Source of the DNA: Deltaproteobacteria bacterium TL4
GTDB taxonomy: Bacteria > SAR324 > NAC60-12
NCBI GenBank assembly: GCA_051382335.1
Contig: JBBCAX010000041.1
Location: forward strand, 1-31,254
Reading direction: 5' to 3'
Length of the DNA: 31,254 nt
A model generated the notes under the pieces. That model had not been told where the DNA came from. It made no database searches and worked only from the letters and a program-made list of their open reading frames with translations. The position numbers were made by a program, and so were the translations under genes. Below are positions 12,433 through 27,420 of this stretch, piece after piece (the stretch's first letter is position 1; each line of letters opens with the position of its first letter).

Positions 12433-14421
12433 TTAGGGGGAGTCGTTAGATCGAGCTAAAGCCACGGGGAGTTTTACCGTAAAGCGAGAATAGTGACCCA
12501 CTTCTGATTCCACCGTTATTTGCCCTCCATGACTCAGAACAATGCGTTTACAGATGGCTAACCCCATTCCCAAACCAAAGCCTGTTCCTCTTTTAGTCGT
12601 CACGTGCATCTCAAAAATAGCATGGATCAATTCCGGAGGAATCCCTGAACCATTATCCTCAAAAGTAATCGCCACATGCTTGGCTTTAAAATCTTTTGAC
12701 GATTTATTTAATTGGGTCCTGATCGTTAGTTTTCCGTGCGGCCCCATAGCGTCTGTAGCGTTGGAAATGAGATTGGTCCAGACTTGATTCAACTGTGCGG
12801 GAAAACATTCGACTAAAGGCAGGGTGTCATAGATTTTAACGACTTCCAATTGCTTTAATTTATTGGAAAAAATCATCAACGTGTCTTCAATGCCCTCATG
12901 GATATCGACTTTGGCCGTGGTTTCACTATCAAGCCTGGCATAGTTTTTAAGTCCCTTAACAATAGCCGCAATTCGTGTACTGCACGAGTTGATGTTCCGC
13001 AAAAAACTGCCGACCTGATAGAAATGATCCAATTGCTCCACAACGGCATCTATCTGCTTTCCAAGAGGTTTGAAATATTTCTGATAACTCGCGTCATCAT
13101 CCATTTTAAACTGAACAATCATTTTTGCTGTATTTGCGGAATTATAACGGGATTGTGCCTTTTTTGTTTGTTCGCGAACTTCCGCGGTTGATAACGGAGT
13201 CACATTCAAGGCTTTTCCCAAAACGAGGTTCCCCAGCACGGAAAGGTTGTTCTCATCCTGAATGGCCGTAATCATGGGAAGGTGAGTATGTAAATGTTCC
13301 ACACTTCTTAAAATGGCGGCAACCGGGTTGTTGAGTTCATGAGCAATTCCCGCCACCAGTTGACCCAAGGTCGCCATTTTTTCAGCTTCCGCAAGCTGAA
13401 GTTGAGTGGCTTCCAACCGATCCAAAGTTTCACGAAGTTCAATGCCGATATCAATAGAGGCTGAAAATCGTGTGTATAACCCTCGCAATAAGGTGTTTGA
13501 AAACAGGGTTAAAAACAGGGGACTTTCCTGCATCACTTTTTCGATAATCGGTTTTGTGAGGATAATCACTTCCACTTTGGTTAAAGCCTGACACGAAGTA
13601 AACGCGGGTTTCCCACTCAAAAAGGACATGATGCCTAAAATTTTACGTTCGCCTTCTTTCAAGACATCATAGACATTTCCATCCGCATGCATTTTTTGAT
13701 GAACCAAATGACCTGTTTTTACAAACCATAACGCGTCATTGGGCTGCCCTTCGCGCAGCAGAATAGCCCCGGGAAGAAACGTTCGGAAGAAAGATTCAGG
13801 AGCTTTCTTGGAGTATTTTAAAATTTCTGCGATTAATTGATCCCATATCTCTTCATCCAGATGATTCGATTGATCAAAGATACTGTTTTGTAAGGATTTT
13901 ACCTGTTTATCTAACTTTTTCCGCTTCTGTTCTGAAAACACAAAAGCTTGACTCAATTTTTCGGAATTAATGAGTTTTTGGTAATAATGCACCTGCTCGG
14001 GCTCATGTCTGATAAAATATTCGGTCAGTAAATCTTCAATCACCTGAATCAACTCTTTAGGGTTCCAAGGCTTAGTCAAACACCGGTTGACTGCGGACTG
14101 GTTAATGCCAGCAATCACATCTTCGTAACTGGCCTGTCCACTGAGCAAAATCGTACTGATCTTTTTAAAACGTGGATCGGCTTTGAGCTGAATAAAAAAT
14201 TCGACCCCATTACTTTGAGGCATCACATAATCACTGATGACAATCACCACTTCCGTCCCTGAACGATGCAACGCCTGCATTAAGTCAAAGGCCTCCGAAG
14301 TACTTTCACACGTTTCAACAATCAGGGAAGAGCCGCAATAATTAGCGATATCTTGTGTTAAACCGTCCAAGACTTCTCGCTCATCATCAATCAAGAGGAT
14401 GGCCATTTCTTTTTTTTTCAT
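12433..14421 (-). CDS. Cytoplasmic histidine kinase with N-terminal receiver and cNMP-binding-like domain
   Basis: REC (LIDDE, ISDYVMP, TKPW); cNMP-like (LLREGQPNDALWFVKTG); EKMATLGQLVAGIAHELNNP; NQVWTNLISNA, DNGSGI, GLGMGL. Confidence 0.9.
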   Translation of the reverse strand: MKKKEMAILLIDDEREVLDGLTQDIANYCGSSLIVETCESTSEAFDLMQALHRSGTEVVIVISDYVMPQSNGVEFFIQLKADPRFKKISTILLSGQASYEDVIAGINQSAVNRCLTKPWNPKELIQVIEDLLTEYFIRHEPEQVHYYQKLINSEKLSQAFVFSEQKRKKLDKQVKSLQNSIFDQSNHLDEEIWDQLIAEILKYSKKAPESFFRTFLPGAILLREGQPNDALWFVKTGHLVHQKMHADGNVYDVLKEGERKILGIMSFLSGKPAFTSCQALTKVEVIILTKPIIEKVMQESPLFLTLFSNTLLRGLYTRFSASIDIGIELRETLDRLEATQLQLAEAEKMATLGQLVAGIAHELNNPVAAILRSVEHLHTHLPMITAIQDENNLSVLGNLVLGKALNVTPLSTAEVREQTKKAQSRYNSANTAKMIVQFKMDDDASYQKYFKPLGKQIDAVVEQLDHFYQVGSFLRNINSCSTRIAAIVKGLKNYARLDSETTAKVDIHEGIEDTLMIFSNKLKQLEVVKIYDTLPLVECFPAQLNQVWTNLISNATDAMGPHGKLTIRTQLNKSSKDFKAKHVAITFEDNGSGIPPELIHAIFEMHVTTKRGTGFGLGMGLAICKRIVLSHGGQITVESEVGHYSRFTVKLPVALARSNDSP

Positions 14422-14480: not shown

Positions 14481-15299
14481 TTAATCGGACGGGAGATAGA
14501 AAAGCCAGGAACCATAGCCAACCACCCTGGAATGATCACCTGCAGTATCACCGGAATTACGGAGATCCAAACGACGGACTTGAAGTTTAAAGTGTTTGGC
14601 TGCGGCAAGTAAACCTCGGACAGGATAATAACCGCAGGCGCCCTCATGTCGCAAGGCCTCGATCTCAAAAGACTCAATCGCTTCCGCCGTTTTTAAATCG
14701 AGTTTCTGTGCAGTGCTATAGTTTTCGAAATGACTTAAATCCGAGCTGATGACAAGCAACGTCTCTTCGCCACCCCACACATGCTGTAAGACTTGGGCCA
14801 CTTCAGCAGGGGTGCTTGTTCCAACCACCAGAGGCAGTAAAACAAAATCCCGGAGTGTTTCCTGTAAAAAAGGCAAATGAACTTCCAGGCTATGCTCTTG
14901 TTCATGCGCATCATCCCGCTGATTGACCCAGGAGTATTGCTGTGTCAATTCCTGGAGTGTTTGAATTTCAAGTGGAATTTTTCCTAAAGGCGTAAGAAAA
15001 TGAGTTGCGGAAGGCACCCCCATTCCCTGGAGATAAACACGATGAGCAGGACCTAACAGCACAACCCTGCTGATTTTCTCCTTTAAGGGTAAAAGTGTTT
15101 TGTAAGCCGTTGCCGCAATCGGCCCCGAGTAAACATAACCCGCATGAGGCGCAATGAGCGCTTTAGGAATAGCCTCAGAAAAAGCTGAAGCTTCGCTAAG
15201 CAATTGCTGAACCTGCCTGCGTAAAACGTTCGGGTCGCCCGGATAAAAAGCATTCGCGACCGCAGGAGGACGGACACGAGAGGAGGAAGTGTGGCTCAT
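14481..15299 (-). CDS. amrB: AmmeMemoRadiSam system protein B (MEMO1 family)
   Basis: VRPPAVANAFYP, PHAGYVYSG, LGPAH, EHSLEVHLPFLQ, SSDLSHF, ACG, NSGDTAGDHSRVVGY. Confidence 0.92.
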   Translation of the reverse strand: MSHTSSSRVRPPAVANAFYPGDPNVLRRQVQQLLSEASAFSEAIPKALIAPHAGYVYSGPIAATAYKTLLPLKEKISRVVLLGPAHRVYLQGMGVPSATHFLTPLGKIPLEIQTLQELTQQYSWVNQRDDAHEQEHSLEVHLPFLQETLRDFVLLPLVVGTSTPAEVAQVLQHVWGGEETLLVISSDLSHFENYSTAQKLDLKTAEAIESFEIEALRHEGACGYYPVRGLLAAAKHFKLQVRRLDLRNSGDTAGDHSRVVGYGSWLFYLPSD

Positions 15300-15350: not shown

Positions 15351-17432
15351 TTAATCATTATCCATATTGGTTGCGGAAACATCAGCAGGTTTGAGTTTAT
15401 TGTATTTGAAATCTGAGGTCGATTGATCTGCGTCAATAACGATCGTATAACCAATATTACCATCAACATCCAGATCGTCAACACCTGTTACCGTGACGAT
15501 TTGTGTGGTATTCCAATCCGCCGAAGTAAAGAACAGACTACTCGGAGAAACAGTGCCTTCACTGGTATCACTGCTTGAAACGGCCAGAGTCACCATCGCC
15601 GTAGGTTCGCTCTTCAGTTTCACCGTAAATGTTGCGGTTCCACCGAGCTCCGTAGTATTCCCGCTTATAGCACTAAGCGTAAATCCAGCGCTATCGTCAT
15701 TGACATTGGTCACCACCACACCGACATGACTTAGCCCCTGATAATTTGAGTCAGCAGACGCGGCAGAACCAAAAATGATGGTATAATTCTGATTTCCATC
15801 ATCGATAGCATCATTCACTCCGGTTACCGTAATGATTCTCGCCGTATTCCAATCCGCAGGATCATCCATTTCCGCTTTGAAGGTGAGACTGGAGGGAGAA
15901 ACCGTACCTTCCGTCGTATCACTGCTGGAAACAAAGACCTGAACATTATTCCTGGGAGGAGTATTGAGCCTCACCGTAAACGTTGCGATTATACCCGATT
16001 CTGCGGTATTGCCACTGATGCCGCTCACCGTAAACCCTGGAGAGAGATCCTGGTTGACAACAGTAACATCACTTGGATTCAAGGAGTTATACCGGGCATC
16101 CGTAGAGACCGCAGGATCCAGAATAATGGAATAAGTCTGATCTCCATCCACCAGTTCATCATTAATCCCCAAGACAGTAACGGTCTGAGGTTCATTCCAG
16201 GCGGCTGCGGTAAACGTCAACGTCAAGTCGGTCACGCCCACACCGTCTTTTAAGACCTTCCCTTCACTCACGTCACTACTGGTTACTTTGACCTGAACAT
16301 TTGTGGCTGTAGCGGGTTGACTGGTTAATACCACAGTAAACGTTGCCTTGGCTCCGGCTTCTGAGGTGTTTCCGCTGATGGCACTCACCGTGAATCCCGG
16401 GGTATCATCATCGGTGTTGATCACGTTCACACTTGCGGGTGTCAAGACAGCATAATCCGCATCATTGGTGACAATGGATCCCAAGTTGATTTTATAAGCT
16501 TGCTTCCCATCGGCTTCATTGTCATTAATCCCTGTGACTGTAACCGTCTGGATCGTATTCCAGTTAACAGGCGTGAAGGTAAGACTCGGAGGCAGCACGG
16601 TTCCTTCGCTCTCGTCAGAACTTGTCATGAAAATTGTAACATTATCTGTGGGAATACTGTTCAAACGGACCGAAAATGTCGCGGTCCCAGCGGCTTCAGT
16701 GGTGAACGTACTGATTGCGCTGACATTAAAACGGGCAATATCATTATCAGTGTTAATGACAGTGACATCCTCCGGATCATGCGAGTTATAGTTGGGGTCC
16801 TCAGAAGAAGCGGGTCCTAAAATCACGGTATAGGTCTGATCTCCATCTTTAAACGAATTATCTTTTCCATAAACCGTGAGGGTCTGCTCCGCGTTCCAGT
16901 TAAACTCAGTAAAAAGAACGCTTTCAGGAGAAACCGTACCCCTTGTTGGGTCACTGCTCGAAACCGGGATGGTGACAGTCATTCCTTCCGCGGGTTTGCT
17001 GTTTAAGCCTAAAGTAAAGGTCGCGCTTCCACCAGCTTCGGTCGTGGGGCCACTGATGGGACCCACACGAAATTTAGAAATAAGCAGCATTTCAATATTC
17101 AAAACCGTGGTCCCACGGCCGATTTCAACTTGCCCTGTAAAATCCACATAACCTTCCTTCCGAGCAACAATGGTGTAGGTCTCTCTCTCAATCTCTTCAA
17201 AAACATACGTTCCACTTTCCACAGTTGCCACATCATCCAAATCTCCAAAAGAAATAACCACGCCCGCCAGCAGCATCCCGTTGGACGCGTCTGTGATCAC
17301 CCCCCTCAGTTTTCCCTTATCCGTTGACGAAACAGCCTCATTCGAAGTTGACGAGTCGTTGCTGGAACAGCTATACTGAAACAGAGCCATCAGGATGAAT
17401 CCTATCGAAAGCATAAAGTATAGTTTTTTCAT
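15351..17432 (-). CDS. Putative surface lipoprotein: carboxypeptidase-regulatory-like beta domain plus 5 Calx-beta-like repeats
   Basis: Signal peptide ending FQYS-C; LRGVITDA...GTYVF...YTIVARKEGY domain; five repeats of about 115 aa (TxExGxxATFTVxLxSxP...SSDxxEGTVSP...FTxxNWNxxQTVTVxGxxD...DGxQxY...NxDND). Confidence 0.8.
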   Translation of the reverse strand: MKKLYFMLSIGFILMALFQYSCSSNDSSTSNEAVSSTDKGKLRGVITDASNGMLLAGVVISFGDLDDVATVESGTYVFEEIERETYTIVARKEGYVDFTGQVEIGRGTTVLNIEMLLISKFRVGPISGPTTEAGGSATFTLGLNSKPAEGMTVTIPVSSSDPTRGTVSPESVLFTEFNWNAEQTLTVYGKDNSFKDGDQTYTVILGPASSEDPNYNSHDPEDVTVINTDNDIARFNVSAISTFTTEAAGTATFSVRLNSIPTDNVTIFMTSSDESEGTVLPPSLTFTPVNWNTIQTVTVTGINDNEADGKQAYKINLGSIVTNDADYAVLTPASVNVINTDDDTPGFTVSAISGNTSEAGAKATFTVVLTSQPATATNVQVKVTSSDVSEGKVLKDGVGVTDLTLTFTAAAWNEPQTVTVLGINDELVDGDQTYSIILDPAVSTDARYNSLNPSDVTVVNQDLSPGFTVSGISGNTAESGIIATFTVRLNTPPRNNVQVFVSSSDTTEGTVSPSSLTFKAEMDDPADWNTARIITVTGVNDAIDDGNQNYTIIFGSAASADSNYQGLSHVGVVVTNVNDDSAGFTLSAISGNTTELGGTATFTVKLKSEPTAMVTLAVSSSDTSEGTVSPSSLFFTSADWNTTQIVTVTGVDDLDVDGNIGYTIVIDADQSTSDFKYNKLKPADVSATNMDND

Positions 17433-17589
17433 AACTCAATCCCGTTTAGAAATTCAAAAATAAAATCGGTAAGGTTGAGGTCCCTTACTTGATTGTGACA
17501 ATAATAAAACGTTTTGTTAATAGAAATTTTCTGAGAGTTACTAATCATTTTTTAGTGTTCTTCAAGACCTAGCGCCAGGTGTTCGTCAT

Positions 17590-19959
17590 CTACAATTCGT
17601 CATCCACATTGAGCACAACCATGGATTCAATCTTCCATCCCGCATAATTAGTGTCTTCAGATTCAATACTGCTGAAATTCACCAAGTATAGCTGGTCTCC
17701 ATCTTTGTCATTATCATCAAGGCCTGTAACGGTCACCGTATGTTCCAAATTCCAATTTTCTGAGGTAAAGTTAAGAATTGAAGGCGACACACTACCTTCC
17801 GAAGAATCACTGACATTAAGATCAATATTCACATCCGCTATGGGTTTTGAAGTTAATTTTACAGTAAAGGTTGCTGTTTCACCCGCTTCTGTTGTGCTTC
17901 CACTAAGTTCGCTCACTGTCACACCGGCACTATCCCTATCAAAATTCAAACCATCAACACCGGGCGGTGTTCGTTTATCGTACTTGGGATCATCGGAAGC
18001 AACGCTTAATAGGACTGTGAAGGATTGATCCCCATCTTGAATATCATCCCCTATTCCCGTCACTGTAATATTTTGAGCAGTATTCCAATTTACTGTGGTA
18101 AAGATCACACGTTCTGGACTAATCCTAATTTCATCCGTTTCATAGGTTGAAAAATCGAAAGTCACATCCGCAGTAGGTTCTGTCCGCAATTTAACCGTAA
18201 AACTCGCACTGCCTCCATCTTCAGAAGTATTTCCATCCAGTTTCCCCACATAGAACCCTGCAATATCGTCATCCTCATTGATGACGTTCAGCCCCTTATG
18301 AACTAATCCATTGTAACGATAATCGCTGGAAGTCGAGGAAATGCTGATGTGATATTCTAAATTTCCATCATCAATGTGATCATTTTTCCCTGTTACCTTA
18401 ACCACTTGATCGACATCCCAATCGTCTGCGTGAAACGCTAGCTTTGAAGGAAAAACACTGCCTTCTGTGCTGTCATCACTGGCCACATCAACGATAACAT
18501 TGGTGGTCGTTTTGTTACTCAAACGGATGGTAAAGGTCGCGGTACCCCCGGTTTCAGTAGTATTTCCGCTGGGTTTTCCCACAATAAAACCTGCAGTCAT
18601 ATCCCTATTGGTTACAGGAACATCTGCCGGATCCAGCGTGTTGTAAAAACTATCGGTTGAGGTTGACGCACCAATCACCACCTTAAAAATTTTATCACCA
18701 TCCACTTCATCATCAGCCACCCCCTTGATCGTAATCATTTGTGGAACCTTCCAATTCAGGGCAGTGAACGTGAGACTAGCGGGAGCGACCGTACCCTCGG
18801 TCAGGGTATCACTTGAAACAGGAAAGGTTACCTCCGCTTGAGGTTCTGTATTTAAGGCCATGGTGAAGGACGCAATTTCTCCAGTTTCAAAGGTACTGCC
18901 ACTTAGCGCGCTTATCGTAACCCCAGGCGTCGGATCTGCGCTTTTGTTGGTGACACTCATGTCTTCAGGATCCAAACCATCATAACCACTATCTGAAGAA
19001 ATAGCGGGACCAATGGCAACCGAATACACCTTATCCCCATCAACAATTAAATCATTCAAACCAATCACAGAAACAATCTGTTCCGCATTCCAGTTATCCA
19101 GCGTAAAAGTGAGGCTCAGCGGAGACAAGGCGCCTTCGGTTTCGTCGCCTGAAGCCAAGGGCAGAGTTACCTCTGAGGTGGGTTGCGAACTGAGTTTGAC
19201 GGTAAAAGTCGCTTTAGTCCCGGTTTCACTGGTACTGCCGCTAATACTGCTCAGGATAAAACCGGGAGTATCATCGTCACTATTCGTAAGTAACACGTCT
19301 TTCGGATCCCAATTATTGAAAGTGAGATCTTCTGAAACACATTTTCCCAGAATAATTCGAAACACCTGATCCCCATCATCAACAACATCATCAATGCCAG
19401 TGACCGTTACCACCTGATTGGAATTCCAATTATCCACGGTAAAAACCAATTGGTCCGGAGAAACAATCCCTTCAGAAAGATTGCTGCTTGAAACGGGGAC
19501 GGTCACTTGTGAGGAGGGTTTTACGTTTAATTTCATCGTAAATGTGGCGGTTCCGCCAGCTTCTGTAATGGCTCCCTGGGGATCCCCGACTCTAAATTTG
19601 GAGAGGAAATGCATTTTGACATTCAGGACGTTATCTGAACGAACAACCGTCACTTTTTTATGATAGTCCTGGTATCCGTCTTTGATCGCAATCAAAAGAT
19701 AGTCTCCGCTTTCAAGGTCTTCAAGCGAGTACTGTCCACTTTCATCGGTGATAGCGGAGACTGTTCCAAGAAAGACAGTCGCTCCTGAAATCACTTCTTC
19801 CGTCGAATCATCCTGAACGACGCCCTTCACCGTTGAGGTTGCTTTAGGAGCATAAGGATCCGGGTTATCTTGAGATTCACCGCATCCCAGCAAAAAGACC
19901 AAGGAGAAGAAGAACCCACCTAAGGTAAATCGACAAAGAACGCACAGGTTATTTGGCAT
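17590..19959 (-). CDS. Putative surface lipoprotein, paralog of 15351..17432, with 6 Calx-beta-like repeats
   Basis: Lipobox LLG-C; VKGVVQD...TDESGQYSL...KDGY domain; six repeats with the same consensus; the start overlaps the motB-like stop by 11 nt. Confidence 0.8.
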   Translation of the reverse strand: MPNNLCVLCRFTLGGFFFSLVFLLGCGESQDNPDPYAPKATSTVKGVVQDDSTEEVISGATVFLGTVSAITDESGQYSLEDLESGDYLLIAIKDGYQDYHKKVTVVRSDNVLNVKMHFLSKFRVGDPQGAITEAGGTATFTMKLNVKPSSQVTVPVSSSNLSEGIVSPDQLVFTVDNWNSNQVVTVTGIDDVVDDGDQVFRIILGKCVSEDLTFNNWDPKDVLLTNSDDDTPGFILSSISGSTSETGTKATFTVKLSSQPTSEVTLPLASGDETEGALSPLSLTFTLDNWNAEQIVSVIGLNDLIVDGDKVYSVAIGPAISSDSGYDGLDPEDMSVTNKSADPTPGVTISALSGSTFETGEIASFTMALNTEPQAEVTFPVSSDTLTEGTVAPASLTFTALNWKVPQMITIKGVADDEVDGDKIFKVVIGASTSTDSFYNTLDPADVPVTNRDMTAGFIVGKPSGNTTETGGTATFTIRLSNKTTTNVIVDVASDDSTEGSVFPSKLAFHADDWDVDQVVKVTGKNDHIDDGNLEYHISISSTSSDYRYNGLVHKGLNVINEDDDIAGFYVGKLDGNTSEDGGSASFTVKLRTEPTADVTFDFSTYETDEIRISPERVIFTTVNWNTAQNITVTGIGDDIQDGDQSFTVLLSVASDDPKYDKRTPPGVDGLNFDRDSAGVTVSELSGSTTEAGETATFTVKLTSKPIADVNIDLNVSDSSEGSVSPSILNFTSENWNLEHTVTVTGLDDNDKDGDQLYLVNFSSIESEDTNYAGWKIESMVVLNVDDEL

Positions 19960-20599
19960 CTACCGTACCATCAAACAACAAGTTAATTTCGTCCAACGAT
20001 TTCGGAGGAGTGGTCAGAATAATTTCTACCCGTCGATTAATCAGCCTGGCCTTTACCAACTCTTCGCCTTTCAAGGGACGGTTAAGATAATCAACGTAAG
20101 GAATTTTGGGGCGGGCATCGGCATAAGCGCTGATAGAAATCCGATCCAGAGGAAAATCCAGGTACCGGGTTAAAAAATGAGCAATACTCGTAGACCTGGC
20201 AGAACTTAATTCCCAATTACTGGGATAACGTTGATTGTGAATGGGGACATTATCGGTGTGCCCTTCGACAATCACCAGATCATGTTGGTGCTCAGGAAGA
20301 GATTTAACGACTTGAAAAAAGGCAATGAGCGGTTGATGGGCCTTCGGCTGGATATCGGCTTGCCCCGAACGAAACAGGAAATCCTGGGGCAAGGAAATAA
20401 TACAACTTAACCTATTGGATCGAAGTTGATAATCACGGAATTCATCTTGATGATCCCGCATGTAGTTTTGTATTCCTTCACAATCCTTTGGCGCCGTAGA
20501 AAGGGTGGTTAATAAAACAAAAAAACAAAACAAAAGTGTCATTAAATCTGAGAAGGTGATCACCCAACCTTCTAAATTCTTTGGTTTTCGTCCACCCAT
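19949..20599 (-). CDS. motB: MotB/PomB-family stator B subunit (TM plus OmpA-like peptidoglycan-binding domain), short form
   Basis: TM WVITFSDLMTLLFCFFVLL with the essential Asp; LFRSGQA, VEGHTDNVP, SNWELSSARS, YADARP, NRRVEI. Confidence 0.9.
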   Translation of the reverse strand: MGGRKPKNLEGWVITFSDLMTLLFCFFVLLTTLSTAPKDCEGIQNYMRDHQDEFRDYQLRSNRLSCIISLPQDFLFRSGQADIQPKAHQPLIAFFQVVKSLPEHQHDLVIVEGHTDNVPIHNQRYPSNWELSSARSTSIAHFLTRYLDFPLDRISISAYADARPKIPYVDYLNRPLKGEELVKARLINRRVEIILTTPPKSLDEINLLFDGTVDAK

Positions 20600-20604
20600 A
20601 TCGT

Positions 20605-21564
20605 TTATAATCCCAAATCGCCACTACGTAATGCCGCCATTCTCTTTTCAAGAATTTGGTTACGATACTCCCACGGCAGGTAAATGATCAAATCTTGCGC
20701 ACTCACCTCGGGTAATTCTCTCCGTTTCAAATAAACTAAACTTTCGCGAATCATTTCCATCAACATCACATGAGATTCTTTCAACTGATACCGTTTCGAA
20801 GCAATCGGTAAGAAGATCAACTGCGCTAACATTACCCCGTAGAGGGTCGTAATCAAGGCGACAGACATTCCGCCCATCACCCCGGAAACGTTAGTCCCAG
20901 TTTGACCCAACATTAAAATCAAACCAACCACCGTTCCAATCATACCAAAAGCAGGAGTAGCGGCCCCCATAAATTCCAAAACATCGATTTCCTCAAAAGA
21001 ACGATAGTTGTACATTTCAATCTCTGAGCGCACAATCTCACACATCATTTCTTCTTCCACGAGATCTACCGCGATAAAATCCTGCAACCAACGTCTGAAA
21101 TCCTTATTCACAACGGCGTTGATCTCTTCATCGGTAATCAGCTCATTGCGAACCCGTTTTGTGGCAAGTTTCTGAACCGTATCATACACGTCCAAAAACT
21201 CCGCCACCTCCGTTTGAGCACGGAGTGCCCGGGCCATAAACAAAATAGCGGCCATCGCCTTGTTAAAAGGAAAGGCAACCATCGTTGCGGCATAGGCTCC
21301 GCCCAGTACAATCAAGATGGATTTCAAGTCAATAAACCGGGTGATAGAACCCTCCCAGGAATCCTGAAATTCCTGAAATTCTTTCTTTTTTTCGAGAATT
21401 ACGGCACTTGAGGCTTTTTGCTCTTTTAGCTGAATCATGATCGTCTCATGATGTCTGAGCTGATACATGTAATAATTTGAAAGGTGGTCGGGCCAGGTAA
21501 TTCCAAAGAAAATCAAAAAAACGCCGAACAAAAAACCGAATATGGTCCCCAGTGTATCTTTCAT
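20605..21564 (-). CDS. motA: MotA/PomA-family stator A subunit with periplasmic insertion
   Basis: FIDLKSILIVLGG (TM2), PAFGMIGTVVGLILML (TM3), MSVALITTLYG...IFLPIASK (TM4), large cytoplasmic TM2-TM3 domain; 5 nt from motB. Confidence 0.9.
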   Translation of the reverse strand: MKDTLGTIFGFLFGVFLIFFGITWPDHLSNYYMYQLRHHETIMIQLKEQKASSAVILEKKKEFQEFQDSWEGSITRFIDLKSILIVLGGAYAATMVAFPFNKAMAAILFMARALRAQTEVAEFLDVYDTVQKLATKRVRNELITDEEINAVVNKDFRRWLQDFIAVDLVEEEMMCEIVRSEIEMYNYRSFEEIDVLEFMGAATPAFGMIGTVVGLILMLGQTGTNVSGVMGGMSVALITTLYGVMLAQLIFLPIASKRYQLKESHVMLMEMIRESLVYLKRRELPEVSAQDLIIYLPWEYRNQILEKRMAALRSGDLGL

Positions 21565-21606
21565 GAGTGTTTTTTAGTTTAAGGTTATCGCAAAGGGAGT
21601 GGTGGA

Positions 21607-23466
21607 TTATTCATAGCCCAATGCGGGAACTCCCGCATTTTGCCCTTCCCAGGTTGCATTAACTTCTTTAAGATTAACCTTGTCATCCGCAGCCATCTGA
21701 CGCATGGCTTGAGAAAAAATCCGGCGTTTCCCTTTGATTTCTTCCACGGTAGGTGTTTTTGCCTTCAAGGCAGAGACCAAGGTTCCTCTGCTTTGCTCAG
21801 GGAAACACAATACCACCGCTTCTTGAATCTCTTTCGGTGCGCCACAGATTGCGGTCAGGACATCATCTGGAGGAAGTTTTCGTACCACCTCAAGCAACAC
21901 ATCCCTGGGTACAACAGGAATCGAGTCAAAGATAAAGCACTGACCTTCAACAATCTCGCTTAACTTTTGATCAGAGACACGTAACCCATTGAGGATTTCC
22001 TGCCGAGTGATGGCATCGGTTTCGCCCAAAACATCAACAACCAGTTCCACCCCATTGACAGAAACCGTATTATCATCAGGCAGATTCTGAGCTTTGCTGG
22101 CTAAAGTATAGGCGATTTGTTCAATGAGGTCCAAAGGCAAGCCTTCCATTTTCCCCAGTTGAATCATCACCCGGGTCCGTTCTTCCTTGGGAAGTTTTTG
22201 GAGGATAGTCGCCATCAATGCTCCTGACAAACGGCTAATGACAATCGCCTTGATCTTCGCCGGTTCTTCTTCAATCAGAAAACTGATCTGATTGGGGCTT
22301 AGCTCCTTCAAAAAAATAAAGGGATCCGTGTGGTGGTCTTCCGGCGCTATCAGTTTTTTTGTGAACAGGAACGTCCAAACATCTTTCAGCACTTGATGCG
22401 ATTCTTGCACCGAAGGATGGACCTCTCTCACCATTTTTTCCAAATCCAAATAGTCCGCGGAACCGATCATTTTAGAAAAAATTTTCCGCGCTGTCTGCGG
22501 TCCCATGATGGCAATGAGTTTAATGAAGGTTTCTGTGGACTGCTTATCCCTGGTCAATTCCTGAATCAATTGCTGATTCCAGTCATCTCTTCCAACCAAC
22601 TGTTTGATGACCTCTTGAAGCAAACGATGATTTTCTTCGTTCAACATCATTTCATCAATCTGCGCTTGCTGATGAGCCCACATTTCTTCCCGTGCGCGTT
22701 CAATCGTTTTCAAGGCGTCTTGAGTCGCGGGCAGCAGTGTCGAATTTGAAGGCGCGGGGTAATGATCCGACGCAGGAGAAGTTTTGCTGGTCTTCTGAAG
22801 ATTTCCGAGTTTCCAGAGGATGGTCAACAATAACAAAACCAGAACCCCGGCGAGTCCAAGCAGTATCCAGTCTTTTAAAGTCAACAAAGGCCCTTCATTT
22901 ACAGAATTTGAAGGTTTTCCTTGGGCCGCACCTATTTCGGTTTGTTTTTCTGAGGTTGCGCTGTCCCCTGTCGTTTTAGCATCCTCTTTTTGAATAGCCG
23001 CTAATTCCGGTTTAATCGGCAAGAAATTAAATTGATCCCCTCGCTGTAAATTCAAGCCGCTCAAAACCGGCACAATTTCGGTAATGTAGGTGCTGATGGA
23101 GGGGGAGATTTCTTTATAAAGCACCAGATCAATGCGCATTTGGGTAATTTCCCAAACCCCTTCCTCGGGAATAGACCGAGAAGGTTCACTGGCAGGAGTT
23201 CGGGCTTGTTCAAAGCCGGGAAGAGCGTCCTCAGCGTTCACCTCTTCAAACTGGGACACTTTATTCAAAGTCGGCACCCTCCCCTTCAACCAGACTTTCA
23301 ACACATAATCTTGAGGAGCGAGATAATACTTTAAGCTGCTGCGAAGGGCATCTTCGATTTCATATTGCTTCATCTGTAGCGACTTGACACGTTCCTGAGC
23401 CTTTGCCGTCGTCAGCAACCCCAAGCAAACAATCCCCATCGCCAAAATTCTCATTAAATTTCTCAT
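21607..23466 (-). CDS. Fusion of a FliF-like periplasmic ring domain, one TM helix and FliG (N/M/C-like domains)
   Basis: Signal peptide ending AKA; periplasmic domain ending SGLNLQRGDQFNF (resembles the FliF G-x4-RGD motif); TM WILLGLAGVLVLLLLTILW; IMGPQTARKIF (FliG-N-like); PFIFLKELSPNQISFLIEEEPAKIKAIVISRL (FliG-M); NGVELVVDVL...CFIFDSI (GG linker and MFxF equivalents, FliG-C). Confidence 0.78.
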   Translation of the reverse strand: MRNLMRILAMGIVCLGLLTTAKAQERVKSLQMKQYEIEDALRSSLKYYLAPQDYVLKVWLKGRVPTLNKVSQFEEVNAEDALPGFEQARTPASEPSRSIPEEGVWEITQMRIDLVLYKEISPSISTYITEIVPVLSGLNLQRGDQFNFLPIKPELAAIQKEDAKTTGDSATSEKQTEIGAAQGKPSNSVNEGPLLTLKDWILLGLAGVLVLLLLTILWKLGNLQKTSKTSPASDHYPAPSNSTLLPATQDALKTIERAREEMWAHQQAQIDEMMLNEENHRLLQEVIKQLVGRDDWNQQLIQELTRDKQSTETFIKLIAIMGPQTARKIFSKMIGSADYLDLEKMVREVHPSVQESHQVLKDVWTFLFTKKLIAPEDHHTDPFIFLKELSPNQISFLIEEEPAKIKAIVISRLSGALMATILQKLPKEERTRVMIQLGKMEGLPLDLIEQIAYTLASKAQNLPDDNTVSVNGVELVVDVLGETDAITRQEILNGLRVSDQKLSEIVEGQCFIFDSIPVVPRDVLLEVVRKLPPDDVLTAICGAPKEIQEAVVLCFPEQSRGTLVSALKAKTPTVEEIKGKRRIFSQAMRQMAADDKVNLKEVNATWEGQNAGVPALGYE

Positions 23467-24752
23467 TCGCCTTCTCCCAACCGTTCAAGGTACTGTACAA
23501 TAACTGCGTTACTCGGGTCGAGTTCCAATGATTTTTTCCAATGCTTCGCCGCTAAACTTTTCCATTTCAAGCGATAATAGATAGAGCCCAGCATCGCGTA
23601 AGCCTGAGCAGAACGAGGGTTATACTCAATCGCCTGCTGGATCTTGTCCAGAGCTTTTGAGTAATCCTGCTTAAAAAACTCCTGTCTGGCTTCCAACAAA
23701 CGTTTCGCGGATTTAAACTCAGCGTCCTGATTCCTGGATTCCGACTCAGGATCGGGTGTATTCCCAGCTTTGGCGACAGGCTCTAAAGGAACAGGCATTG
23801 AGAACAAGGGATCAACAGGTTCCTCCGTAGGTTTTTGCTGAGGATCTTTCTGCGCGGTCTTTTCAGATTTTTTCGTTTCGTCTGTCTGAGGCTGTTCTTC
23901 CGACACCATCTCTGACCTTTGAGAACTAGAGGAAGGGACATAGGCGATTTCCATACGATCTTGGGAACCAAGATTCAACTCATCGACCTGAGCGTCTAAA
24001 CTTTGACGTAAGACTTCAACCTCAAAAGACGATAAAGCGGAGTTAACCACGATGAAGACCGTTTTAAAAACCTGCAGTTGATTCACCAGGCCCAAGACAT
24101 TCTTGGTCTCCGTTGGAACCCATACGTGATTTGAGAACCCCGGAAGTTTGATCCTCGAGATTTGCTTATGACTCTCACTGATCGGAAGGGTTTGAATGAC
24201 ATAATGACTGCTGACAGTAACACTTACATATTTTTTGAGCAGTAGGGGCTTTAGCAGTTCGTGGAGTTTTTTCCGCAACGCGTTTTCCGCAAATTGCTGT
24301 TCCGCGGTTGAAGGCAAACGAACCTCACCTCGCTTCTGTTCATAAGGAGTCTCTATGAATTCGGATGAAACCTCAGAGGTTTCCTTGGGAAGTTCTTTTA
24401 TTTGCTCAAAAGGCTTGGTCATCGCTTTTTGAGTTTTCTCAGCATCATCCGCAGGCGAAAGCGCTGTTAAGGTTTGAGGTTGTTTCGTTGATGTTTCCTT
24501 AGAGGCAGCGTTTGAGGAACCGTTTGGTGTGACTTTGCCTTTGGGAGGAAACGCCAAGGTGGAATTCATTTCTTCCAGTTTGGTTTCTTCCTGTTTTTTA
24601 GCATTCACATCCACCTTCACGGACTCCACCAAGGCTTCTTTGGATGAGGCCGATGCGGCTGAGGAGGTGTCCGTTTGCGCGTTGAGAACCTGTGTCAGCC
24701 CCCCCACCCAAAGGAGCACAGACACGGATAGCATGAGGTTGCGTACTTTCAT
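23463..24752 (-). CDS. Exported protein with low-complexity linkers, one FliF-like ring domain and C-terminal TPR repeats
   Basis: Signal peptide ending LNA; ENALRKKLHELLKPLL..VSVTV...LPGF...VFIVVN...LNLGSQDRMEI parallels the ring domain of neighbouring genes; TPR DYSKALDKIQQAIEYNPRSAQAYAMLGSIYY...WKKSLELDPSN; ATGA overlap with the next gene. Confidence 0.7.
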   Translation of the reverse strand: MKVRNLMLSVSVLLWVGGLTQVLNAQTDTSSAASASSKEALVESVKVDVNAKKQEETKLEEMNSTLAFPPKGKVTPNGSSNAASKETSTKQPQTLTALSPADDAEKTQKAMTKPFEQIKELPKETSEVSSEFIETPYEQKRGEVRLPSTAEQQFAENALRKKLHELLKPLLLKKYVSVTVSSHYVIQTLPISESHKQISRIKLPGFSNHVWVPTETKNVLGLVNQLQVFKTVFIVVNSALSSFEVEVLRQSLDAQVDELNLGSQDRMEIAYVPSSSSQRSEMVSEEQPQTDETKKSEKTAQKDPQQKPTEEPVDPLFSMPVPLEPVAKAGNTPDPESESRNQDAEFKSAKRLLEARQEFFKQDYSKALDKIQQAIEYNPRSAQAYAMLGSIYYRLKWKSLAAKHWKKSLELDPSNAVIVQYLERLGEGE

Positions 24753-24753
24753 T

Positions 24754-26070
24754 TTATTTTGCCAATGAATTTAACATTTGAAGTGCATCCTGATCCTCAG
24801 GATCAAGGCTAATCACATGTTTCCACGTTTCGCGAGCTTGCTCTTTTTCTTGAAGTAAAAAGTGCAAGGACCCTTTCATTTTCAATAAGCTGAGTTTATC
24901 TTTTCGTTGCACAGCAACTTTCAAGGCCTGTTGAATTAAGGCTAAGCCATTGACGTAATCGCCTGCTTCAAACGCTGTGTTGATCTGAGTTTGTAAGCGA
25001 TGCAAGGTAACCAACTTTTCGGAGGTAATCACCCCTTCCTTCTCAGGAAAACGCTTGCGGCTAATATTCAGTTGATCCCCACGGTCAGGATTGATACTGA
25101 CGATCAGCGGGATAGAACGCTTTAAGAAAGCATCCACTTCCGGCGCGACCGTATCGTTCAACAACACCTCAATATCCATTCTGATCTCATCTGACGTATT
25201 TTTCACCCCTTTGTCGGATGTTTTCTTTGAGGACGCTCCCTGGATTAAAACAAACTTGACCTTGGTTACAAAATCATTGAGGTTCACATATTCACTAATG
25301 AGTTTTTCAATTTTTTTCGTCAAATCCTCCTCTTCACGGGGAGCAATACTGACCGGAGAGGCCTTGGGAAAAACAGTCCGTTCCACCGTAATGACGTCGC
25401 CCCGTTCCTTGACATAAAACATCTGTGACGGTAAGAGCAGGTTCACAAATCTTTCCTGATAATCCGGCAAAGCGTTATCCAACAGGATTTTAATATCCTG
25501 ACGCACCACCGCGCGTTCCAACTCGTAATTGATATTGATGCTTTTTTCTTCCAGAGAGGATGCCGCTTTGAGCAGAGGCGCACTTTTCAACTGGAGCTCA
25601 TCCAATTTCTGTTGGTCCCATACCAAGCGCAAAGACACGCTAAAACGATCCAAGGGAAGATACCTGGCCAATAAACTTTCAACACGGGCTTTCTGATCCT
25701 CTTCATACTTACCTGTCTGTGGACCAAACTTAACCGTTGTGGGGTCTTGCAGAGGGACAGAAATCACAAAATTCTGGTCTTCAATCTTATGTGAAATTGT
25801 TGAATCAATACCGTCTTTCTTCAACAAAATCCGAATCGTATTCTGACCGCCTAAACTTTCCTCGATCACACTGATGGAACCATTACCGCCATCCGTACTC
25901 TGGGTATAAATGACTTTTTTCTGGAATTTTTTTACTTCAGAGGGAGGAGCCGTGTATTTATCAAAAGAAGCACAGCCCACAATCAGGGAGAAGAACACTC
26001 CCACACACAGTGAACTGATGAAAAAACTTCTGTCATTTTTTAAACGAATCATTTGCTTCATAATATCCAT
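24754..26070 (-). CDS. Lipoprotein with two tandem FliF-like ring domains and C-terminal TPR
   Basis: Lipobox IVG-C; internal duplication YEEDQKARVESLL...KERGDVITVERTVFP and EEEDLTKKIEKLI...PDRGDQLNISRKRFP; TPR end KGSLHFLL...WKHVISLDPED. Start could be 26070, 26061 or 26052. Confidence 0.72.
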   Translation of the reverse strand: MDIMKQMIRLKNDRSFFISSLCVGVFFSLIVGCASFDKYTAPPSEVKKFQKKVIYTQSTDGGNGSISVIEESLGGQNTIRILLKKDGIDSTISHKIEDQNFVISVPLQDPTTVKFGPQTGKYEEDQKARVESLLARYLPLDRFSVSLRLVWDQQKLDELQLKSAPLLKAASSLEEKSININYELERAVVRQDIKILLDNALPDYQERFVNLLLPSQMFYVKERGDVITVERTVFPKASPVSIAPREEEDLTKKIEKLISEYVNLNDFVTKVKFVLIQGASSKKTSDKGVKNTSDEIRMDIEVLLNDTVAPEVDAFLKRSIPLIVSINPDRGDQLNISRKRFPEKEGVITSEKLVTLHRLQTQINTAFEAGDYVNGLALIQQALKVAVQRKDKLSLLKMKGSLHFLLQEKEQARETWKHVISLDPEDQDALQMLNSLAK

Positions 26071-26142
26071 TTCGGGATAAATCAGGAACGAAAGAGAAAA
26101 TTTTTCCCTATCTTTTGATGATCACATAAAGAAACACACCCC

Positions 26143-27183
26143 TTAAAATTGCCATCCCATGGCCACGTATTGAGCACCGCTCGTCTTAGGATTAGTAGGG
26201 GCGGGTTGAAAACTTAACTGGTAAAAATTAAACGTTAATTTTTCTCCCACGGTTGCTTTTAATCCAAACTTAACAAAAACCGGAGAGGAAATGGGGGTCA
26301 CAAACAAATTCCCAACGCCAAGCACCGCGTCCAATGCGCCACGAACCCCGGGGAATCGCCATTCATAAGCAACCGTACCATCCACAAGAAGTCCATCAAG
26401 TCCGTCACTCAAGCGGATGTCCAAATTCGAGTTATCATCGGTTAAAAAGGCCACCGTTCCCGAAAATAACCAACTTTCAGAGATTCTTTGCGCGAACTCC
26501 ACACCAAAGATGAAAGCGGAATGTTCCACTTGTTGGGTCGCTTTATCAGAAACGCCATCTCCGTTCTGATCCACCCGTTCGCCCGCGACGGTTTTGGTAT
26601 AAGTCACTTCGATCGGAATGTTCAATTTTCCGAAAAATCCATTCGTATATTGAACCTTGCCCCCGGGATCCCCGGTAATGATCTCAGAAAATACGATTTT
26701 GCCGTCTTTGGCCTCATAAGCCGCCAAGGTCATGGAGAGTTGATCCTGGCTCATGAAAATACCGATATCCAGAAAACCTTGAACATTCAACTCTGCGGCC
26801 TTTGTTCTTCGGTAATCTTCATCAGCGATCCCCCGACTCACTTTTAAATAATTCCCACGAATTTCACTTCGAATCTGACTGCACTCCTGGCATCGGCTCA
26901 CCGTTAGATAGTTATCCCGGGTCAACAGGTCATACAGCCTTGAGACCAAAACTTTTTGAAGGTCGGTTTTGATGTTTTCATCGACAGTCGTTGAGGAAAT
27001 CGCAACCGATTCAATCCGCTGACGCAAACGCCCAATCGCTTCCAACAACAGCGGAGTCATTTTTTCCAATTGAGCAATCTCACGATCTTCCCAGAAAATA
27101 GTCGACTTCGTCTGCTCCTTTCCCATTGCGGAGAAATTCACACCGAGGAAACCAATCATAAACAACACTGCAATTTTCTTCAT
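26143..27183 (-). CDS. Putative outer-membrane protein: periplasmic alpha/beta domain plus C-terminal beta-barrel
   Basis: Signal peptide MKKIAVLFMIGFLGVNFSAMG from ATG 27183 (GTG 27246 also possible); alternating amphipathic strands in the C-terminal half; ends YVAMGWQF (terminal Phe beta-signal). Confidence 0.62.
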   Translation of the reverse strand: MKKIAVLFMIGFLGVNFSAMGKEQTKSTIFWEDREIAQLEKMTPLLLEAIGRLRQRIESVAISSTTVDENIKTDLQKVLVSRLYDLLTRDNYLTVSRCQECSQIRSEIRGNYLKVSRGIADEDYRRTKAAELNVQGFLDIGIFMSQDQLSMTLAAYEAKDGKIVFSEIITGDPGGKVQYTNGFFGKLNIPIEVTYTKTVAGERVDQNGDGVSDKATQQVEHSAFIFGVEFAQRISESWLFSGTVAFLTDDNSNLDIRLSDGLDGLLVDGTVAYEWRFPGVRGALDAVLGVGNLFVTPISSPVFVKFGLKATVGEKLTFNFYQLSFQPAPTNPKTSGAQYVAMGWQF

Positions 27184-27420
27184 TCTACCTTTCTCTGTCT
27201 GTACCCATGCCAATGTGAGTTTTGTTTGAGAAATTGCAATTCGCACACCAACCCCTTTCTTCTTGTATTTCTCTTTGCAAATTAAATGTCAACTATGTTT
27301 TTATATTTTTTATATTTTTGCTAGAAATACGACAACGATCATGTTAAACGAAAACCAGTGTCATGTAACAATGACTTTTTCATGCGATGATTTTGACAAT
27401 CCTCATTCGAAGGTTGAACG

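Follow-up and report, generated by a model that had tools for sequence, protein, structure and literature searches.

FliG is treated as a marker of flagella only, and none of the non-flagellar 5:2 motors known to us makes use of it. ExbBD-TonB, TolQRA, AglRQS-Glt, GldLM and ZorAB are ion-driven inner-membrane motors coupled to work at the outer membrane or cell surface, and act through their B subunit or a periplasm-spanning partner rather than through FliG. The ring-building motif (RBM) of FliF has likewise been reused outside flagella, in SpoIIIAG and in the SctJ and SctD rings of type III secretion systems, and we know of neither a FliG nor a stator in these. Here we describe an operon in a 31,254-nucleotide stretch of DNA (the window) from the SAR324 organism Deltaproteobacteria bacterium TL4, encoding a natural FliF-FliG fusion together with flagellar-type MotA and MotB, proteins with predicted ring domains and a predicted outer-membrane protein. 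We favour the view, with a probability of roughly 0.55, that these genes specify a stand-alone envelope motor, derived from the flagellum and turning one way only, whose force would be applied to the outer membrane or to structures at the cell surface.

The window corresponds to contig C41 in an assembly of 6.6 Mb whose completeness is given as 100%. Eight co-directional open reading frames occupy 15351..27246, all on the minus strand, and their coordinates confirmed exactly the gene set and the spacings (72, 1, -4, 42, 5, -11 and 157 nucleotides, from 27246 to 15351) given in an earlier reading of the sequence alone (the sequence-only reading). They are as follows.

26143..27246, minus strand: predicted outer-membrane anchor, from AlphaFold and structure comparison; core; real start probably near 27183 (346 amino acids)
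24754..26070, minus strand: ring1, a predicted lipoprotein (lipobox Cys33), from iterated profile and Atlas clusters; core
23463..24752, minus strand: ring2, secreted, from Pfam and iterated profile; core in SAR324 type I
21607..23466, minus strand: FliF-FliG fusion rotor protein, 619 amino acids, from Pfam, structure match and family profile; core
20605..21564, minus strand: MotA of the flagellar PomA/MotP-like type, from NCBIfam and alignment; core
19949..20599, minus strand: MotB, 216 amino acids, from profile searches; core
17590..19959, minus strand: predicted lipoprotein (Cys26) with a CarboxypepD_reg-like domain and Calx-beta-like repeats, from Pfam; not part of the conserved set
15351..17432, minus strand: second repeat protein, a probable lipoprotein with an atypical lipobox, CarboxypepD_reg-like domain and Calx-beta repeats, from Pfam; not part of the conserved set

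The first six genes constitute the core, and the two lipoprotein genes lie outside it. The sequence-only reading had interpreted the whole operon as a self-contained rotor repurposed from flagellar parts that might move or display the lipoproteins. This was supported in part: the folds resemble those of FliF and FliG, the core is conserved and independent of the flagellum, and its fliG and motAB are not the only ones of a complete flagellar system, whereas the role proposed for the lipoproteins in gliding was not supported.

The fusion rotor protein and its stator

The fusion begins with a signal peptide, a hydrophobic segment of cleavable type followed by an A-Q-E site kept in its relatives, and continues with an RBM3-like domain (amino acids 26-151), a transmembrane helix (200-218), a helical FliG-N-like region, FliG_M (391-463) and FliG_C (495-599). 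Pfam matched the last two above its cut-offs (E 1.3e-11 and 2.1e-12, respectively). An AlphaFold model built with 28 sequences (pLDDT 78.8, pTM 0.35) gave reliable domains, though the low pTM means that their mutual arrangement is not, and its N-terminal domain has an alpha-beta-beta-alpha-beta topology with a 40-residue insert. The best Foldseek match was FliG (E 5.5e-10), followed by the FliF S-ring/RBM3 (E 5.6e-3), and among solved sequences the family profile matched both FliG (E 3e-30) and FliF (E 5e-5), bearing out the folds predicted from the sequence alone. No Pfam match to PF01514 (RBM1-2) was found in the fusion, and just one transmembrane helix follows the signal-type segment. In FliF the export gate is housed by RBM1-2, so the fusion lacks this housing.

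The EHPQR loop of FliG binds FliM, as stated in an excerpt of one report (PMC7355467). In all 23 SAR324 type I fusions EHPQ is replaced by EPxK/R, and none of 44 distant fusions retains an H-P-Q triplet. A single FliF-FliG chain can form an MS ring, according to the excerpted accounts of Salmonella and Vibrio FliFG fusions (PMC10941966; PMC7355467). Those engineered or selected fusions contain full FliF and sit inside a flagellum with FliM/N, whereas the present fusion is natural, truncated and outside a flagellar locus.

MotA had its best NCBIfam match to MotP/PomA (E 5e-35), with ExbB at 5e-5 and TolQ at 2e-3, and is an A subunit of four transmembrane helices with a cytoplasmic torque domain. 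Its residues T211, T239 and T240 correspond to PomA T158, T185 and T186 and were kept in all 28 module MotA rows; that threonine triad is tied to Na+ selectivity in the cited part of a PomA study (PMC10374538), and Na+ coupling is predicted for the module stator. MotA R137 (18/19 type I sequences, with a register uncertain by one residue), D145 (acidic in 19/19) and D167 (19/19) lie at or next to PomA R88, E96 and D114. A helical periplasmic insert of about 40 amino acids between the first two transmembrane helices (amino acids 24-70) is specific to type I MotA. MotB comprises a transmembrane helix bearing D18, a plug and an OmpA-type peptidoglycan-binding domain, with a Cys40/Cys66 pair around the plug that is invariant (19/19). 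The B subunit is thus of MotB type and not of the ExbBD/TolQR type, and none of the eight proteins matched a TonB or TolA family.

The same genome carries canonical flagellar genes on other contigs, namely FliG (C349), FliF (C21) and FlhA (C147), along with 10 strong flagellin matches, 12 FliM/N-domain matches and a further motAB locus (C22). Whether separate canonical fliF, fliG and motAB existed had been left by the sequence-only reading as a point to check; canonical fliF and fliG do, as does another, presumably flagellar motAB. Its statement that the window itself holds no fliM/N, export, rod, hook or flagellin gene also held among the window's reading frames, part of which were scanned with Pfam and the remainder judged from translations. 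The presumed flagellar stator locus (C22:7208-9360) contains a single motA together with a tandem pair of short motB genes (213-219 amino acids), and its MotA also has the Na+ threonines.

The module shares with the flagellar torque core the order of RBM3/S-ring domain, transmembrane helix and FliG, a flagellar-type MotA, a MotB with plug, Asp and OmpA domain, and a PomA-like Na+ site. It differs in that its rotor is a natural single chain without RBM1-2 and the first transmembrane helix, in having neither a FliM site nor FliM/N, export gate, rod, hook or filament, in its altered torque-helix charges and very short MotB, in its additional RBM3/TPR proteins and outer-membrane barrel, and in its occurrence in flagellum-less genomes. 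It would work like the flagellar torque core, yet is set apart from it by FliF architecture, FliM site, torque charges and linkage.

Conservation in SAR324 and in flagellum-less bacteria

A profile of the N-terminal part of the fusion matched 49 of 88 SAR324 genomes, 47 of them strongly; three of the 49 were themselves in the profile. The fusion occurred together with a module-type MotA (E <=1e-80, plus one contig-cut copy; tallied by hand) in 40 genomes, neither was found in 38, the fusion only in seven and MotA only in three, counts which are not independent as the 88 genomes include kin. The seven comprised four incomplete genomes of carrier genera and three f3 genomes with diverged copies, and the three MotA-only genomes were 51-72% complete. 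The gene order outer-membrane protein-ring-ring-fusion was complete in 21 of 26 type I loci, the other five being cut by contig or locus ends, and its recurrence is more than chance. In these 26 loci motA/motB lay directly downstream in two and directly upstream in 16, and the marine genera carry them at another genomic site; module MotA was still 63-68% identical where unlinked from the rotor genes. The six-gene core is kept across SAR324, and the expectation that the set is conserved together in other genomes was upheld. At the f3 loci L049-L051 and L100, diverged fusion-like genes stand beside phosphate-transport and efflux-like genes and are possibly stator-less derivatives.

Beyond SAR324, the N-terminal profile retrieved 281 representatives at E values up to 1e-3. 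Scanning of 36 of these identified 30 long proteins with FliG_M and FliG_C, two without a Pfam match and four ordinary FliF proteins; source names, available for a few representatives, were Bacteroidota, Calditrichota and Deltaproteobacteria. Atlas clusters were commonest in Balneolota, Bdellovibrionota, Cloacimonadota, Myxococcota and Elusimicrobiota, which we regard as leads only. A single-protein search of GTDB contigs gave no matches; an alignment of 12 distant members led to 67 GTDB loci, mostly in Balneolaceae and Fibrobacterota. Ten loci viewed in detail had the order fusion-outer-membrane protein-TPR lipoprotein-motA-motB, one of them without motAB, and motAB was within reach at 56 of the 67.

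Flagellar genes were sought in 27 of the 67 carrier genomes, chosen for long contigs. FlhA was absent from 14 of them, and canonical FliG also from 13, seven of which are single-chromosome records; the remaining genome (G110) retains canonical FliG and was not counted as flagellum-less. The synteny of fusion and motAB thus persists in genomes lacking flagella, as the sequence-only reading had asked of it. Five of the 13 were tested further, and none of the five had flagellin or FliM/N. MotB was encoded exactly twice in each of the five, by a short and a long gene, each lying beside one of two fusion copies. Every MotB gene in these flagellum-less genomes adjoins a fusion, and this is the strongest evidence that stator and fusion act as partners independently of a flagellum. 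An independent report, in the part cited here, likewise describes Gracilimonas tropica as without flagellar assembly genes (PMC9909488).

These data bear on the possibility that the module is an accessory or second rotor of the flagellar motor, comparable to the extra FliG paralogs of spirochaetes. SAR324 alone is unable to show independence from the flagellum because flagellin was present in 81 of the 88 genomes, including all module carriers but one, and the closeness of module MotA to flagellar MotA (see below) also fits an accessory role. Many flagellated SAR324 nevertheless lack the module, among them all 12 genomes of genera g2 and g3, and the fusion has neither RBM1-2 nor a FliM site. 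The 13 carriers without FlhA and canonical FliG largely refute such a role for the family, and we regard it as very improbable. One SAR324 carrier, G074, was considered as a flagellum-less example, as it had no flagellin or FlhA; it was not counted, given a canonical FliG in its 310-contig assembly. Flagellin paralogs are numerous in most SAR324 genomes, with 10 here and up to 21 elsewhere.

Another alternative is that the module survives as the decaying remains of a flagellar apparatus since lost. The same report, as excerpted, takes Balneolaceae to be in the course of losing flagellar genes (PMC9909488), and the diverged copies in three f3 genomes are apparently stator-less. Decay is hard to reconcile with intact reading frames, invariant catalytic residues, MotA identities of 45-68% across a phylum, a fixed gene order in several phyla and the retention of two copies per genome, and this explanation is barely plausible.

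Phylogenies were quick, thinly sampled and unrooted, and within these limits the SAR324 module MotAs formed one clade (SH-aLRT 100), sister to the unlinked, presumably flagellar MotA of SAR324 (support 94 with 92 rows, 96 with 43 rows), with the Balneolota and Fibrobacterota module MotAs placed elsewhere. The FliG parts of 27 fusions were split from canonical FliGs, represented by only three rows, by one branch (support 94). We cautiously suggest that the rotor is an old separate lineage, which SAR324 re-equipped with a copy of its own flagellar stator; a stator swap in SAR324 is probable from these trees.

Envelope proteins and surface neighbours

Ring1 has an N-terminal beta-domain (amino acids 20-111), two RBM3-like domains (115-232 and 240-338) and a C-terminal TPR region. 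Ring2 has one RBM3-like domain (148-272) with an LPGF motif, low-complexity linkers and a C-terminal TPR region. All three RBM3-like domains were located with an iterated profile started from the N-terminal domain of the fusion. A profile of 25 ring domains aligned with FliF along the entire domain (E 7.5e-4) and gave a weak match to SpoIIIAG (E 0.038), and in the Atlas clusters nearest to ring1 PF08345 was present in 38-67% of members. Pfam gave no match to the RBM3 domain of the fusion alone, and five of the 25 ring domains matched PF08345 weakly. Aligned against the single FliF sequence of this genome with hhalign, the ring domains gave no significant match (probability 0.9), and the local iterated ring-domain profile did not retrieve that FliF. 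The N-terminal domain and TPR of ring1 match a short TPR lipoprotein that replaces it in other SAR324 families and in Balneolota; on this similarity, ring1 is a fused form of that lipoprotein with added RBM3 domains.

The outer-membrane protein, 346 amino acids long in its database form (start at about 27183), has a signal peptide, a periplasmic LpoB/TolB-N-like alpha/beta domain with an invariant CxxC, and a C-terminal barrel ending in W-x-F; Pfam gave no match to it. In its AlphaFold model (pLDDT 81) the barrel has eight strands and resembles NspA (Z 17.3, rmsd 2.1 over 138 residues), and the N-terminal domain resembles LpoB (Z 9.1, rmsd 4.3 over 122 residues), so we predict an anchoring function. 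An export pore or L-ring-like bushing was considered and rejected, as a barrel of eight predicted strands is too narrow, and export through this protein, one of the outputs suggested earlier, is unlikely. The Vibrio H/T-ring (FlgO, FlgP, FlgT) likewise places a periplasmic LpoB/CsgG/FlgO-like outer-membrane domain beside a Na+ motor, and one homolog of the outer-membrane protein matched FlgO weakly (E 0.005). LpoB-, CsgG- and FlgO-like domains presumably share a fold. In the module, by contrast, this domain is fused to an eight-strand barrel and no L/P rings are present.

Prediction of a complex between the outer-membrane protein and ring1 gave weak support (0.38, against 0.00 for the best control), with runs agreeing in at least 74% of contacts and a partner pLDDT of at least 68. 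The mark used was reached by 116 of 157 solved pairs and two of 215 mismatched pairs, and at scores up to 0.60 by only 18 solved pairs and by both mismatches. Natural gene fusions suggest links between the layers in the same direction: locus L117 encodes a barrel fused to TPR, and loci L262-L266 a secreted protein of about 1000 amino acids that ends in the module's TPR.

The two repeat proteins are 44% identical to each other, and the first is probably co-transcribed with motB here, given their overlap of 11 nucleotides. The sequence-only reading had placed first among its options a gliding motor that moves these Calx-beta lipoproteins along the surface, as GldLM does SprB, and had proposed a search for the synteny of fliG-fusion, motAB and Calx-beta lipoprotein. 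The overlap with motB fits that option, as do the large predicted lipoproteins in which both modules of this genome end and the Calx-beta-like repeat proteins that follow type II operons in G010, G066, G062 and G027. The first half of this synteny recurs; the Calx-beta half does not, since among 34 loci with a type I module or module motAB a single one has a similar gene, encoded on the other strand at a distance of about 6 kb, and none of the 67 loci in other phyla has one. No conserved adhesin or track genes accompany type I modules, and no track protein was identified. Gracilimonas tropica, whose genome has two modules, is listed as non-motile and belongs to a phylum without reported gliding in the portion of the source cited (PMC5167729). 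With lipoproteins that are not conserved and a non-motile cultured carrier, the gliding-adhesin reading is weak and we hold it to be improbable. In this genome 26 reading frames on about 20 contigs, of up to 3,291 amino acids, share the Calx-beta-like repeat of about 113 amino acids, and this scatter also counts against the two lipoproteins as dedicated parts or gliding cargo; they are local cargo candidates of this genome at best.

A looser link to surface proteins survives, on gene neighbourhood, through paralogous modules, which lie beside very large secreted proteins at nine SAR324 loci. A second, diverged module of this genome (C33:106697-126686) encodes an outer-membrane protein homolog, a lipoprotein, a 658-amino-acid membrane protein, MotA and a 540-amino-acid MotB with a Calx-beta domain, and is flanked by secreted proteins of 768, 831, 1025 and 1725 amino acids, the last a lipoprotein. 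Pfam found no FliG match in the 658-amino-acid protein, which is tied to the family via marine type II fusions (E 3e-24); these in turn were found by the ring-domain profile at E 1e-4 to 6e-12. The type II loci of marine SAR324 (L090-L096, L250-L261) have the order fusion-motA-long motB, followed by a barrel of about 420 amino acids with an N-terminal Ig-like part and weak matches to porin, CooC_C and PorP. Next in these operons come genes for a FecR-domain protein, for lipoproteins and for secreted proteins of giant size, among them a frame of at least 6,666 amino acids; the exception is G004, where motAB has no fusion alongside.

In Balneolaceae all five second copies (L262-L266) lie behind three to four small secreted proteins matching DUF4402, together with a protein of about 277 amino acids, the TPR-tailed protein mentioned above and a long MotB with a SPOR domain. 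This layout resembles a chaperone-usher operon joined to a motor, a likeness not confirmed by profile searches. As paralogous modules are repeatedly tied to surface genes, we infer one motor with interchangeable outer-membrane outputs. Zorya combines ZorA/ZorB with the effectors ZorC/D/E; the neighbours of the module here are envelope proteins and not nucleases.

Proposed mechanism and its torque interface

From known FliF/FliG biology, the fusion would form an inner-membrane ring, as an engineered Vibrio fusion does in the excerpted report (PMC10941966). Dedicated, predicted Na+-driven MotA5B2 units anchored to peptidoglycan would push the FliG rim in one direction, with the 5:2 stoichiometry, the Na+ coupling and the lack of CheY switching and of a type III export gate all extrapolated from known FliF, FliG and PomAB biology. 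The RBM3 rings and TPR adaptors would then probably carry force to the outer-membrane barrel, a chain to which the gene fusions and the one weak complex prediction point. The output, the least certain step, might be to energise the assembly, display or movement of surface fibres or adhesins at the outer membrane, with cargo operons varying by lineage.

Several observations weigh against this model. The ring, its rotation and the interactions of its parts are predicted from sequence, modelling and analogy, and no bushing is evident for a stack rotating through peptidoglycan. Almost all SAR324 carriers are also flagellated, and the f3 genomes G056, G057 and G059 keep a diverged fusion-like gene, with module MotA not found there. 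Type I modules have no conserved cargo neighbour, and neither usher nor chaperone was matched in Pfam, NCBIfam or PDB sequences at the Balneolaceae second-copy loci. The FliG part of the engineered Vibrio fusion, as excerpted, is fuzzy without FliM/N (PMC10941966). MotB has nearly no linker, with about 35 residues from transmembrane helix to OmpA domain, which is a departure from flagellar stators, where long plug-linkers are typical according to the cited part of one study (PMC12505986).

Among the results, the torque charges speak most strongly against a torque interface of the canonical kind in SAR324. At the positions of the acidic pair D288/D289 (which we take to be E. coli FliG numbering, as for R281), all 23 type I fusions are neutral, and the R281 position is basic in just 10 of 23. 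Other torque-helix charges are kept in these fusions (E557 in 21/23, R560 in 21/23, K/R568 in 23/23), which suggests a re-wired interface. Of the 44 distant fusions, 40 have R or K at the R281 position, and 14 and 18 have D or E at the two acidic positions.

Loss of the acidic pair could instead indicate an energiser or sensor that does not rotate, in which the ring would serve as a scaffold and the stator, by tugging or ratcheting on the FliG domain, would pull at the outer membrane, as in Tol/Ton systems, or report envelope load. The near absence of a MotB linker and the invariant Cys pair would suit such a device, as would the lack of FliM/N to stiffen the ring, an outer-membrane partner that is a small barrel with a LpoB/TolB-N-like domain, a fold known from envelope-maintenance proteins, and the non-motile cultured carrier. 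The fusion, on the other hand, keeps the whole FliG M-C architecture, including the PEV-like proline, GG-linker glycine and F-x-F hinge, and the Tol/Ton systems known to us need no FliG. The sister position of module MotA to the SAR324 flagellar MotA in two quick trees further suggests that a torque-type stator could take over the job. We consider the non-rotating alternative unlikely, though one to be taken seriously, and prefer the rotary envelope motor.

Whether such modules together make up a second widespread class of FliG-ring rotary machine is, in our estimation, an even question; its hallmarks would be a single-chain FliF-FliG rotor, flagellar-type stators, no export gate or switch, stacked RBM3 rings with a TPR adaptor, and interchangeable outer-membrane outputs (small barrel, adhesin-linked barrel, pilus-usher-like pore). 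A conserved rotor and stator without export gate or switch, kept in two copies by bacteria that have no flagellum, would represent a novel type of envelope machine; if true, FliG would here be used outside the flagellum for the first time, and the module would offer a living model of a minimal rotor and a case of stator swap with the flagellum of the same cell. Both the capacity of a minimal FliF-FliG-MotAB motor and the use of rotor and stator apart from type III export become testable, and the module is open to study now because, besides abundant marine SAR324, it is present in culturable Balneolaceae (Gracilimonas tropica DSM 19535, Balneola sp. EhC07). A further consequence is that fliG and motAB annotations overcount flagellar motility. 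The present window adds the SAR324 form with four RBM3-like domains, a test by which the Calx-beta lipoproteins are excluded from the core, the pairing of short and long MotB common to two phyla and the probable exchange of stators. No description of the module was found in the open full-text literature, a scope outside which subscription-only papers and supplements fall (e.g. PMC12505986, PMC13277936); the terms 'fusion', 'paralog' and 'orphan' do not occur in the accessible part of PMC13277936.

The G+C content was flat over the operon region (0.43-0.49) and so gave no sign of recent insertion, and a promoter scan of the operon was at chance level (15 found, 17.7 expected). The operon had no listed RNA holder, a negative that carries no information about its expression. 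Elsewhere in this genome, C54:12135-12929 and C146:3581-4459 encode proteins of 264-292 amino acids in which FliG_C stands behind an unrelated N-terminal part, outside flagellar loci. Directly downstream of the operon, 51 nucleotides past the last lipoprotein, lie a Memo-like gene (14481-15299) and a minus-strand gene (12433-14421) encoding a hybrid signalling protein, in which a receiver, a cyclic-nucleotide-binding-like region and a histidine kinase were recognised as judged by sequence.

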